In this document: in pieces, positions 13,929 to 19,131 of the stretch
Layout: each line of letters begins with the position of its first letter
How positions within the stretch are numbered: the stretch's first letter is position 1
Assembly: GCA_029855935.1 (NCBI GenBank)
Contig: JAGSHN010000022.1
Coordinates: 1 to 64,000 of the forward strand
From: Candidatus Thorarchaeota archaeon
Lineage (GTDB): Archaea; Asgardarchaeota; Thorarchaeia; Thorarchaeales; Thorarchaeaceae
Direction: 5' to 3'
DNA: 64,000 nt
Made by a program: the position numbers and the translations under genes
Notes under the pieces: model-generated
What the model saw: only the letters and a program-made list of their open reading frames with translations
What the model was told of the DNA's origin: nothing
Database searches by the model: none

Positions 13929-14270
13929 TCACTCAGCACCTCGAGCCAGTCGCGAGAGAGCAAGAAAGACTATCAGGAAGAAGCTGGCCACCGCAGCGAG
14001 TGCCCTGGCTACCTTCTGCCACCTCGTTTTCGGGACCTCAAGATCACGGAGTTCATTTGTGACACGACGCAGATAGACGCGCCTCTCCGAGTACAGGACG
14101 TTGGGATCGTCAAGCTGAGATGCAAATTCCGACCATGCAACATGATAGGGCGGCTCCGCATCTGTCGTCATCGCCCACTCCGTCCATCTCTTGAGAATCT
14201 CGCTCCTGTGAGGTTCTGGGAAGGACGCAATGACACGGCGTATCTTCTCATCATAGTCCGGTGGTATCAT
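13929..14270 (-). CDS. Hypothetical tail-anchored membrane protein
   Basis: Soluble helical body plus a single C-terminal hydrophobic helix ALAAVASFFLIVFLALS; start uncertain. Confidence 0.7.
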   Translation of the reverse strand: MIPPDYDEKIRRVIASFPEPHRSEILKRWTEWAMTTDAEPPYHVAWSEFASQLDDPNVLYSERRVYLRRVTNELRDLEVPKTRWQKVARALAAVASFFLIVFLALSRLARGAE

Positions 14271-14394: not shown

Positions 14395-14922
14395 CTATCG
14401 CATCTTCGTCAGCTCTTTCTGCCAATCCCTGATGTCAGAACGCAGTTTGTTCAGGTCGGCCGGGTTGACGGGGTCCACACGGCCGTAGGTCTTCAGTATC
14501 CTGACCCACCGCTGCATCTTGACAACAAGGTTCGGGCTCCCTCCGCGCTGCTCGAACAGGTCGGCCGTTTCACGTATCTTGTCGGCAAGATCGCTAGCAA
14601 TGACGCCATCTCGTATCTGGGCCTCGAGCGTGTCAAGCAGCGAGCTGAGAGAAGACACTCTGGCCTTCTCCTCGACACTTGACGTGGGACGAGAGACTGC
14701 AACAGCAGCCGCCTGACTCGGCATGCTCCGAATCGCCTCGGCTAGGTCATCAAGTTTCTCGCTATTGGCAGCAACCGCAAGAGCAAGGTCGCCCAACTTG
14801 TCGTCCATCCCTGCAAGCCTGGTCATGACCTCGATCATCTTGTTCAGCATCTCGGTCATCCGGGTCAGGGCACTATTGATCTCGGTCAGCTTGGCGCGAA
14901 TGTAGGTGTCTTCCTCTGTCAC
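14395..14922 (-). CDS. Coiled-coil protein with Vps28-CTD-like C-terminal helical bundle
   Basis: GTG at 14922 with GAGGAG upstream; heptad N-terminus, low-complexity linker, then KMQRWVRILKTYGRVDPVNPADLNKLRSDI. The CDS is secure; the Vps28 call is tentative. Confidence 0.6.
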   Translation of the reverse strand: MTEEDTYIRAKLTEINSALTRMTEMLNKMIEVMTRLAGMDDKLGDLALAVAANSEKLDDLAEAIRSMPSQAAAVAVSRPTSSVEEKARVSSLSSLLDTLEAQIRDGVIASDLADKIRETADLFEQRGGSPNLVVKMQRWVRILKTYGRVDPVNPADLNKLRSDIRDWQKELTKMR

Positions 14923-15128
14923 GAGACTCAGCTCTCCTCGGGAAATGTGGATGCTTCCTTCACAATCCAGTCCTGTCTGCTCTCTGTCTGGCATTCTCAT
15001 AAAGTTTCTGTGGCTTTCCTCAGGATGCCTCAGTGCCATAACTCAACCTTATTTAGGAGCTAGATGATGACGCGACCCAGAGCCGTGGACCTAAGGCTGG
15101 ACCAAGGCCTGAAGAGGAGGTCTCAACG

Positions 15129-17142: not shown

Positions 17143-19131
17143 TCAGAACTCGAGAAACGGCTCACCCAGTACGATACGCTCAAGAAGGCTGTTCTTGGAG
17201 GCACGCTTGATGATCTCTATGAACCGCTTCTTGAGCCGAGCGTCATCAACGTATTCTGGTTCTCTGATGCCCATCGATTTGATGACCTGATCCAAGACGT
17301 ACTTGAAGTCAAACACCAGGCACGGGATCTTCTTGCCACTCTTTGTTGGACACTTGTCCTTCTTGGCGAGCCCCAGCTTGATGGCCATCTTGGTCTCCTT
17401 CAGATAGAAGGTCATCGCCTTCTCGTAGTTGAGGGTCTCTCGTTTGACCAGCTCTCTTAGGAACGGCAGTCCGAAACGCGTACGGGCCAGCTTCTCTATC
17501 TTGGCCACGAAGGCGTTCACAATGTCGTCATAGGACACCTTCTCGGCCTTCCCACGAGTCTCGAAGACCTTCTCGTCATCCTTTGCGGACTTGAACTTCT
17601 GCTTCTTCAGGGCAAGCTCGCGTTCTCGTCTCTTGCGCTCCTCCTCCTCCTTGCGTCGGCGCTCTTCCTCCTTGCGGCGTCGCTCCTCCTCAAGCCTCTT
17701 CCGCTCAGCCTCCTTTCGACGCTGCTCCTCGAGCCTCTTGCGCTCAAGTTCCTTGCGGCGCTCCTCCTCCTTACGCCTTCTTTCCATCTCCTCCAGAATC
17801 TTCTGCTGGCGCTTCACGAGTGCCTCCATATGCTTCTTGACGTCACGCTCGGTGAGAGTCACGTGCTTCGTCAGGAGCCAACGCACGGAGATGTTGTTGA
17901 CGCGAGGCTTCAGGTCCGCTGAGGAGAATATGAAGCAGGCCGTCTGTTGACCGGGCAGGGCCGTGATGATCTTCTCGGCTGCAGCCTCACCAGCGATGGG
18001 TTCTAGAATCCGCTCAAGAACCTTGAGCGACTGCTCACTGCTGATGCGTCCTGCCGCGATTGTATTGAACTGTTCAAACGCCTTGTAGTCAATGTCCTTC
18101 GGACTCTGAGTGGCTACGAGGCACTCAATACCATACTTGCGTGCCTGTCGGAACAGCAACAGGAAGATCTCCTTCGGTCCCGGTGCTCTCATACCCGCGG
18201 GGATGAACGGCGCGGCCTCGTCCATGAACAGTATCATCCGTGGCTTCTCAGTGAAGCCCTGTCGCAGCATCCACGAATAGAGCTGGTTAAGCATAATTGC
18301 GATGAAGAAGTGCTTCTCCTCCTCGCTCCTCAACGTCTTGAGGAAGATCACGTTTATTGGGGTCTTACCATCCACCGAACGAGTCAGGTCATCAAAGTCA
18401 ATCTGACCCTCCTCCCTGAAGAGCAGCTGTGCCGAGCCGACCGTCAGACTTCTGATGGCCGCGGCCAATTTCTCACGCTCTGAGAACTTCATATACGGCT
18501 CAAGGTCGACACCCACCTCCTCCGCTGGCGCCACAAGCAGATTTGCCAGCTCCATCAGGTCCTTGATCTCGACACCGTTCTCCCAAGTGACCCTGAGAAG
18601 CTCGTACAGGGCCGCAAAGGACTTGCTCTCCCAAGATCGTGACAGACCAGCGACCTTGGCGAGGACCTTGACCAGAGTCCGCGCTGAGTTGTCGAGAAGA
18701 CGAATCATGTCATCGTGGTCAGCCTTCTTGTCAGGCAACTTGAGCGGGTTAATCGAGATGGCCAGACCCTTGGTACTCGCGGGCGTATAGACGCGGACAA
18801 TCACCTTTTCCATGAATTCCTTCAGACGCCTGGGATCGACGCCCTTCTTCTCAAGTTCCTTGGGATCACCCGGCAACATCAATGAGGCGATGTCTCCCTG
18901 AGGGTCAAAGGCTATGACCGGAATGCCCTGAAGTGCAGCCTCCTCCAGAATGACCTTGCTGAGCACCGTCTTGCCCGAGCCGGTGGAACCGAATACGCCA
19001 CCGTGTCTGCGTAACAGGTCCACGCTGATCTCGAACTTCTTGTTAGTGCGATTTCCCTTGTCGTCCAGATAATAGCCCAGCCAGAGCTTACCTTCCTCAG
19101 TCATTTCAAATACCACCTTGGGCGGCGACAC
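17143..19131 (-). CDS. HerA/FtsK-superfamily ATPase (DUF87/DUF853-like) with E/R/K-rich helix and unknown C-terminal domain
   Basis: Walker A GSTGSGKT, FDPQGD, Walker B ILFMDEA, RQARKYG, ATQSP. Confidence 0.88.
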   Translation of the reverse strand: MSPPKVVFEMTEEGKLWLGYYLDDKGNRTNKKFEISVDLLRRHGGVFGSTGSGKTVLSKVILEEAALQGIPVIAFDPQGDIASLMLPGDPKELEKKGVDPRRLKEFMEKVIVRVYTPASTKGLAISINPLKLPDKKADHDDMIRLLDNSARTLVKVLAKVAGLSRSWESKSFAALYELLRVTWENGVEIKDLMELANLLVAPAEEVGVDLEPYMKFSEREKLAAAIRSLTVGSAQLLFREEGQIDFDDLTRSVDGKTPINVIFLKTLRSEEEKHFFIAIMLNQLYSWMLRQGFTEKPRMILFMDEAAPFIPAGMRAPGPKEIFLLLFRQARKYGIECLVATQSPKDIDYKAFEQFNTIAAGRISSEQSLKVLERILEPIAGEAAAEKIITALPGQQTACFIFSSADLKPRVNNISVRWLLTKHVTLTERDVKKHMEALVKRQQKILEEMERRRKEEERRKELERKRLEEQRRKEAERKRLEEERRRKEEERRRKEEEERKRRERELALKKQKFKSAKDDEKVFETRGKAEKVSYDDIVNAFVAKIEKLARTRFGLPFLRELVKRETLNYEKAMTFYLKETKMAIKLGLAKKDKCPTKSGKKIPCLVFDFKYVLDQVIKSMGIREPEYVDDARLKKRFIEIIKRASKNSLLERIVLGEPFLEF
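17600..17790 (-). repeat. Low-complexity coding repeat (EEERRRK-like units)
   Basis: Repeated ctcctcc/ttgcggcg units encoding an ER/K helix. Confidence 0.8.

Follow-up and report, generated by a model that had tools for sequence, protein, structure and literature searches.

[quoted passage not shown] In eukaryotes, the C-terminal domain of Vps28 (Vps28-C) docks ESCRT-I onto ESCRT-II, and possibly onto ESCRT-III, and its partner in ESCRT-II is the GLUE/NZF part of Vps36. The Thorarchaeota list of Hatano et al. 2022 (PMC9192718) comprises SB, Vps22, Vps25, ESCRT-IIIA/B and Vps4, and contains neither Vps28 nor ubiquitin. A gene at 14395..14922 (-) of the window analysed in this study (a stretch of 64,000 nucleotides, contig C13 of a 2.97 Mb genome that is 97% complete in 32 contigs) raises the question of whether a cell of this lineage encodes a Vps28-C domain and, if so, in what kind of protein. 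A sequence-only reading had proposed that the gene encodes a cryptic ESCRT-I subunit. The analysis presented here leads to a different answer, to which we assign a probability of roughly 0.6: the product is a coiled-coil protein of the adaptor type that bears a Vps28-C domain and is not a core subunit of ESCRT-I.

The gene and its three-part product

The gene extends from a GTG start at 14922 to a stop codon at 14395-14397 on the minus strand and encodes 175 amino acids. Its reading frame is open over a longer distance (14395..15039 (-), 214 aa in the ORF list), and the in-frame upstream extension to an ATG (14923..15039 (-)) is not shared by homologues and is probably untranslated. More than 150 homologues, nearly all of them labelled Candidatus Thorarchaeota, are 171-177 aa long with 50-79% identity and span just 80-83% of the 214-aa frame, and their N-termini (M-[SAT]-E-[ED]-D-T-Y) correspond to the GTG at 14922. 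These lengths and the common start therefore identify 14395-14922 as the true gene, as the sequence-only reading had assumed. A search of the genome contigs returned the target match at C13:14398-14919. Among sequencing runs, the sequence is listed solely in a hydrothermal-vent metagenome, which may be where this DNA comes from, and in no RNA run.

The same reading had described a heptad coil, a low-complexity linker and a C-terminal helical domain, and all three were recovered by AlphaFold2 modelling, heptad shuffling and column identity. In the full-length model (pLDDT 79), residues 3-65 (14728..14916 (-)) form one helix, in which 78% of the a and d positions of one register are occupied by L, I, V, M or F, compared to a mean of 45% in shuffled sequences (0/5000 shuffles reach 78%). 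The alignment places the invariant stretch DTYxRAKLTEI in this helix, with T6, Y7, R9, A10, K11, L12 and I15 as invariant columns. Residues 66-82 (SMPSQAAAVAVSRPTSS; 14677..14727 (-)) form an S/A/P low-complexity linker that is disordered in the model (pLDDT ~42) and differs in length and sequence among orthologues; its column identity is 33%, versus 75% in each flank, and it is much longer in paralogues. The C-terminal residues 83-175 (14398..14676 (-)) fold into a four-helix bundle (helices 83-105, 109-125, 130-144 and 154-174), and this domain reached a pLDDT of 88.7 when modelled alone with a wider alignment. Two conserved ends flanking a variable tether suggest a bridging protein.

Pfam searches with the protein, 26 orthologues, paralogues and distant relatives produced only sub-threshold matches to coiled-coil families (DUF948, FUSC, NPV_P10, Snapin_Pallidin and BLOC1_2), which are treated here as apparently compositional. 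The coiled coil of orthologues and relatives (A1, P0257-P0279) also shows recurrent sub-threshold similarity to BLOC-1/BORC-type subunits (Snapin_Pallidin, BLOC1_2 and SNAPIN 9tqb_F), a resemblance that is probably compositional. At the start of the helix, residues 2-13 (14883-14918 (-)) carry the motif D-T-Y-[IV]-R-A-K-L-T-E-I-N, whose spacing may match that of MIM1-type MIT-interacting motifs, [DE]xxLxxRLxxL[KR]; this MIM1-like pattern is degenerate and frequent in heptad helices.

Relationship of the C-terminal bundle to Vps28-C

Structure comparison connects the bundle to Vps28-C. When the full-length model was searched against the PDB with Foldseek, the C-terminal domain of Xenopus Vps28 (2j9w_B/A) ranked first, with a probability of 1.0, a TM-score by target of 0.72 and an rmsd of 2.9, and the yeast structures 2j9v and 2g3k gave TM-scores of 0.74-0.76. 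With the domain-only model, 2j9w_B/A occupied the top two positions (TM 0.71-0.73 by both normalisations), and the next structures scored at most 0.63/0.50. The bundle thus has the topology of Vps28-C, and Vps28-C is its best PDB match with both models. A second structure search, VIA, also placed Vps28-C at the top. Weak matches to PsbQ/Psb27-type proteins were considered as an alternative fold and rejected, as they covered ~25 residues or had lower TM-scores.

An alternative explanation is that the resemblance is convergent and that the domain is a generic up-down four-helix bundle on a coiled-coil protein of unrelated function. The Foldseek E-values are at least 0.08, generic bundles lie within 1 Z unit of Vps28-C in the VIA search, identity to Vps28-C is 11-15%, and searches of profiles against sequences fail. 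Pfam VPS28 matched neither the target at E<=10 nor the 26 orthologues at E<=1 (the PF03997 matches of this genome lie elsewhere), while sequence and profile searches of the PDB with the protein and with the profiles A1, A2 and A7 returned coiled-coil and designed-bundle noise, with 2j9w at an E-value of just 0.67. No sequence-to-profile search of Pfam or the PDB connects the target to Vps28, and a feature search of a protein atlas gave nothing beyond one Asgard cluster at 0.77.

The comparison of profiles with profiles argues against convergence. For an Asgard Vps28-C profile (A3), PF03997 was used to collect 30 canonical Vps28 genes from other Asgard families, and their C-terminal domains were aligned; A3 was validated by its matches to 2j9w (1e-13) and to yeast 2j9v, 2j9u and 2g3k (~4e-7). 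The profile of the narrow target family alone reached a probability of 4% (E 0.01) against Asgard Vps28 in hhalign, with C-terminal domain already paired with C-terminal domain. When the target subfamily was combined with the paralogous subfamilies (A2), the probability against A3 was 84.3% (P 7.2e-6) over 85 columns, which is the whole domain, and an Asgard-wide profile that includes relatives from other lineages (A7) reached 90.6% (P 1.3e-6). The real score of 35.3 compares with 10.4 and 12.4 for reversed profiles and with a mean of 11.2 (sd 2.4, maximum 19.7) for 200 column shuffles; it therefore lies ~10 sd above the shuffles, none of which (0/200) reaches it.

The whole domain aligns in one register, in which W139 and W167 of the target fall on the two tryptophans conserved in Vps28, spaced by 28 residues. 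The sequence-only reading had relied on a gapless alignment to a segment of yeast Vps28, and that segment is identical to the motif KLIDWIVRINKLSIGDTLTETQIRELLFDL printed in the PDB alignment. Because W139 is paired with the same tryptophan of Vps28 by hhalign, the gapless alignment has the correct register. The tryptophan and two aspartates singled out in that alignment are conserved among the 26 aligned orthologues, with W139 and D150 invariant and D163 at least 90% conserved; W139 is not retained in the paralogous subfamilies. In the reverse direction, a search of the 22,545 six-frame ORFs of the genome with the Asgard Vps28-C HMM ranked a paralogue first (E 0.36) and the target third (E 1.5), neither match being significant singly. 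An HHpred result for a probable paralogue, listed in Table S3 of Makarova et al. 2024 (PMC10936438), provides independent evidence in the same direction. Taken with the first place of Vps28-C in two independent structure searches and with two models, these observations make convergence improbable, and it is likely that the C-terminal ~93 residues are a true, remote homologue of Vps28-C, as opposed to a family-level sequence match.

Paralogues, genomic setting and the ESCRT-I question

The target subfamily is narrow, as an exhaustive search of representatives yielded just 10 clusters at 50% identity. A survey of 300 Asgard genomes detected it in Thorarchaeaceae, its own family (70 of 76 genomes), and in the one genome of the sister family (1/1); the remaining families contributed no more than two weak matches, G053 in f21 and G009 in f10. 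Within Thorarchaeaceae it is near-universal and usually single-copy. Pfam VPS28 matched 6 of the 76 Thorarchaeaceae genomes, all weakly, compared to nearly all other Asgard families, which have Pfam VPS28.

The genome encodes three further proteins with the same C-terminal domain, giving four paralogues in total, and 3-4 copies are typical of a Thorarchaeaceae genome. The 356-aa paralogue (contig C21, L064:730-1800 (+)) has tandem repeats of ~20 aa in its coiled coil. The 282-aa paralogue (contig C16, L065:1495-2343 (-)) consists of a helical N-terminus, a long A/P-rich spacer and the same bundle. In the most divergent copy, of 309 aa (contig C27, L066:1486-2415 (-)), an extra winged-helix-like segment accompanies the coiled coil and the C-terminal domain, and its gene adjoins PDCD5-like and TatD-like genes. 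A profile of the domain identified proteins of the same layout (helix, P/A-rich spacer and bundle; 173-430 aa) in Odin-, Hel-, Loki-, Jord- and Freyarchaeia and in other lineages, and in these lineages such proteins and canonical Vps28 are encoded by separate, coexisting genes. The target is a subfamily of this Asgard-wide family, which is defined by a coiled coil, a P/A/S-rich linker and a Vps28-C-like bundle. The domain-profile search for longer or fused forms returned coiled-coil plus bundle proteins only, of 173-411 aa; neither a PF03997 protein nor a fusion to another domain was among them, an absence that is weak evidence because the candidates were chosen by shared words. With regard to the phyletic profile, complementarity with Vps28 stood for the near-universal Thorarchaeaceae subfamily but is confined to it; since the wider family coexists with canonical Vps28, the complementary pattern holds only for the narrow subfamily and is no proof that it replaces Vps28 functionally.

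As the sequence-only reading had noted, the target gene lies outside the ESCRT cluster. The cluster occupies 164-173 kb of contig C21, versus contig C13 for the target, and contains Vps22 with a steadiness box, Vps25, Vps4, two TldD/PmbA genes, Znr_CC_PH_SB and ESCRT-III; contig C27 carries a second ESCRT-III gene. The two TldD/PmbA peptidase genes stand inside the cluster, between Vps4 and Znr_CC_PH_SB. In the loci examined, no ESCRT genes were found within 6 kb of the target orthologues.

The strongest form of the ESCRT-I proposal holds that Thorarchaeota have their true Vps28 in the target, which would be a core ESCRT-I-like subunit; its N-terminal helix would then be a stalk helix or a degenerate steadiness box and would assemble with the Vps22 and Znr_CC_PH_SB steadiness boxes. 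A near-universal, mostly single-copy subfamily in a family of genomes without a detectable canonical Vps28 is consistent with this explanation, as are the Vps28-C-like C-terminal domain and the long helices typical of ESCRT-I stalk subunits. The N-terminal helix, however, shows no such relationship. In hhalign comparisons, residues 1-70 reached probabilities of 0.2% against the Asgard Vps28 N-terminal domain, 1.0% against the Vps22 steadiness box and 2.4% against the Znr_CC_PH_SB steadiness box, while the positive controls gave 99.2% for the N-terminus of the genome's Vps22 against the Asgard Vps28 N-terminal domain (E 5.9e-20) and 83.2% for the Znr_CC_PH_SB tail. The gene was never found in an ESCRT cluster in the loci examined. 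This genome has three more paralogues, and other Asgard lineages encode relatives of the same layout alongside their canonical Vps28; both points indicate that the protein belongs to an older family of its own and is not a derived form of Vps28. A true Vps28 is accordingly a very unlikely reading of the target. The proposal of a cryptic ESCRT-I subunit is not supported, given an N-terminal helix without detectable relation to the Vps28 core, the absence of Pfam VPS28 and Vps23_core matches and the position of the protein as one of four paralogues: the target is not a Vps28 orthologue and not an ESCRT-I core subunit.

Several other candidates for a Vps28 or for its parts were considered in this genome. 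An Asgard full-length Vps28 HMM run on the genome ORFs matches Vps22 at 9.5e-14. The N-terminal ~75 aa of this Vps22 (C21:164724-165506, L067:2725-3510 (+)) are a strong homologue of the Vps28 N-terminal domain or steadiness box, in agreement with Table S3 of PMC10936438, in which residues 1-70 of Thorarchaeota Vps22 (KXH75178.1; ThorAB25_09030) are assigned to PF03997 at 99%. It would be attractive to regard Vps28 as having been split, with its N-terminal half going to Vps22 and its C-terminal half to the target; such an event is unsupported because Vps22 with a steadiness box is general in Asgard archaea according to PMC10936438, and because the coiled-coil/bundle family coexists with intact Vps28. 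A 444-aa coiled-coil protein (C21:327383-328717) was rejected as Vps28, its Pfam VPS28 match being weak (E 0.009) and the Asgard Vps28 HMMs leaving it unrecovered. The weak match of that protein (L001:1351-2685) is full-length, and the 356-aa paralogue lies ~1 kb away. A PF09454 (Vps23_core) flag on the homologue P0034 was not reproduced at E<=1, and the steadiness-box lead was dropped.

Candidate function and comparison with known systems

There are two potential explanations for what a Vps28-C homologue on a coiled-coil helix does. To our knowledge, docking to ESCRT-II/III is the sole documented role of Vps28-C, and an ESCRT adaptor is the best single guess for this reason. By analogy with eukaryotic Vps28-C, function as an ESCRT-linked adaptor is put forward tentatively for the target. 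According to Makarova et al. 2024 (mBio, PMC10936438), Vps28-C occurs in many non-core Asgard proteins with a scattered distribution, and such proteins are proposed to reach ESCRT-II without core ESCRT-I. The sequence-only suggestion of a ubiquitin-independent ESCRT adaptor matches that proposal and is a plausible interpretation of the target.

The second explanation is that the protein works outside ESCRT as a coiled-coil scaffold or tether whose bundle is a general protein-binding module, acting for example with the protein encoded downstream or in small-GTPase-linked trafficking like one of the paralogues. The co-oriented gene directly downstream (13929..14270 (-)) encodes a tail-anchored membrane protein of ~113 aa with a C-terminal hydrophobic segment and no Pfam family, and it occupies this position in all 14 Thorarchaeaceae loci examined (43-60% identity). 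The medium paralogue, of 282 aa, has small Ras/Arf-like GTPase genes on both sides together with a CBS-domain gene, and small GTPases also lie near the target orthologue in one other genome. The lack of ESCRT linkage in the loci examined and the two conserved ends with a variable tether would fit a scaffold of this kind. On the other hand, the neighbours of the target comprise a HerA-like ATPase, a B3_4 protein, an HAD hydrolase, a cupin, the tail-anchored protein and a RecJ-like DHH protein, and this synteny is kept in other Thorarchaeota, with no ESCRT gene in it, and lost in the sister order. Since the HerA-like, B3_4, cupin, target, tail-anchored and RecJ-like genes are syntenic family-wide, the adjacency of the tail-anchored gene may be inherited and is weak evidence of function; in G108, a genome of the sister order, the tail-anchored homologue (33% identity) and the target orthologue share a contig but are separated by ~10 kb. 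With ESCRT-II/III docking as the only documented role of Vps28-C, work outside ESCRT is considered unlikely. A separate observation from the same neighbourhood is that the HerA/DUF87-type ATPase gene (17143-19131 (-)), syntenic with the target across Thorarchaeota, encodes a long E/R/K-rich helical arm with a weak MAP7-like match and a C-terminal domain without assignment.

The product is a soluble protein of 175 aa, conserved at both ends and variable in the tether that joins them, and its N-terminal helix of ~63 residues probably forms a coiled coil, either with itself or with another partner. As an ESCRT-linked adaptor, it would use its bundle to contact the ESCRT-II/III machinery of Thorarchaeota (Vps22 with its Vps28-like steadiness box, Vps25, Znr_CC_PH_SB and ESCRT-III) and its N-terminal helix to attach to another partner or site. 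A complex prediction for Znr_CC_PH_SB, Vps22 and the target, made with alignments, scored 0.00; it was run without controls and speaks neither for nor against binding.

A more speculative and rather doubtful extension is that in Thorarchaeia, which have no canonical Vps28, UEV-Vps23 or ubiquitin, the near-universal, mostly single-copy target serves the cell as its working Vps28-C. In this scenario, the bundle would dock onto the Vps22(SB)/Vps25/Znr_CC_PH_SB assembly, the invariant N-terminal helix would draw in either some signal other than ubiquitin or a partner in the membrane, which might be the co-inherited tail-anchored protein, and the Asgard-wide family would consist of interchangeable ESCRT-0/I-like adaptors predating eukaryotes. 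If this were true, the protein would represent a simple, ubiquitin-independent entry route into the ESCRT pathway. If Vps28-C-like coiled-coil proteins feed cargo or sites into ESCRT, they would also be small, expressible candidates for binding studies with Vps22, Vps25 and ESCRT-III. The existence of Asgard non-core Vps28-C proteins is in general already published (Makarova et al. 2024, PMC10936438); the present study adds a defined subfamily that is near-universal in Thorarchaeaceae, the four paralogues in this genome, same-layout relatives across Asgard archaea and the finding that the target is not a Vps28 orthologue.

Compared to known systems, the closest likeness is to Vps28-C itself (the C-terminal half of PF03997; 2J9U, 2J9V, 2J9W and 2G3K). 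The target shares with it a C-terminal four-helix bundle of ~93 residues with the same topology and register, and the pattern W...LK...D..K[IL]..D...W.K[DE][FL] aligns with the target without gaps. The differences from Vps28 are that the target bundle is 11-15% identical and has no Pfam match, that it is joined to a coiled-coil helix in place of the N-terminal core (steadiness box), and that its gene stands outside the ESCRT cluster, ESCRT and ubiquitin genes being the usual neighbours in Asgard archaea (a supportive difference, not a defining one). The stalk subunits of ESCRT-I are long helices, as in yeast ESCRT-I, and the long heptad helix of the target could in principle join a helical stalk of the kind formed by Vps37, Mvb12 and Vps23; unlike them, the target shows no steadiness box or sequence similarity, and Pfam searches gave no Vps23_core or Mod_r match. 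In these genomes, the remaining half of Vps28 is found on thorarchaeal Vps22, as its N-terminal steadiness box, but Vps22 is a separate protein encoded on another contig inside the ESCRT cluster, without Vps28-C.

The non-core Vps28-C proteins of Asgard archaea provide a parallel to the whole protein: they belong to the same phylum and likewise consist of a helical N-terminal part that a spacer connects to a Vps28-C-like bundle at the C-terminus. In Table S3 of PMC10936438, the Thorarchaeota protein KXH73277.1 is listed as BAR-like over residues 1-110 and as matching 2J9U_A over residues 155-235 (HHpred 84%). KXH73277.1 differs from the target, whose single helix of 63 residues is too short for a BAR domain, and its length and domain coordinates (155-235) fit the 223-282-aa paralogue family (contig C16, L065:1495-2343), not the 175-aa subfamily. 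Judged by length, the 282-aa paralogue probably belongs to the subfamily of this published BAR plus Vps28-C protein, and KXH73277.1 shares both the lineage and the layout of the target.
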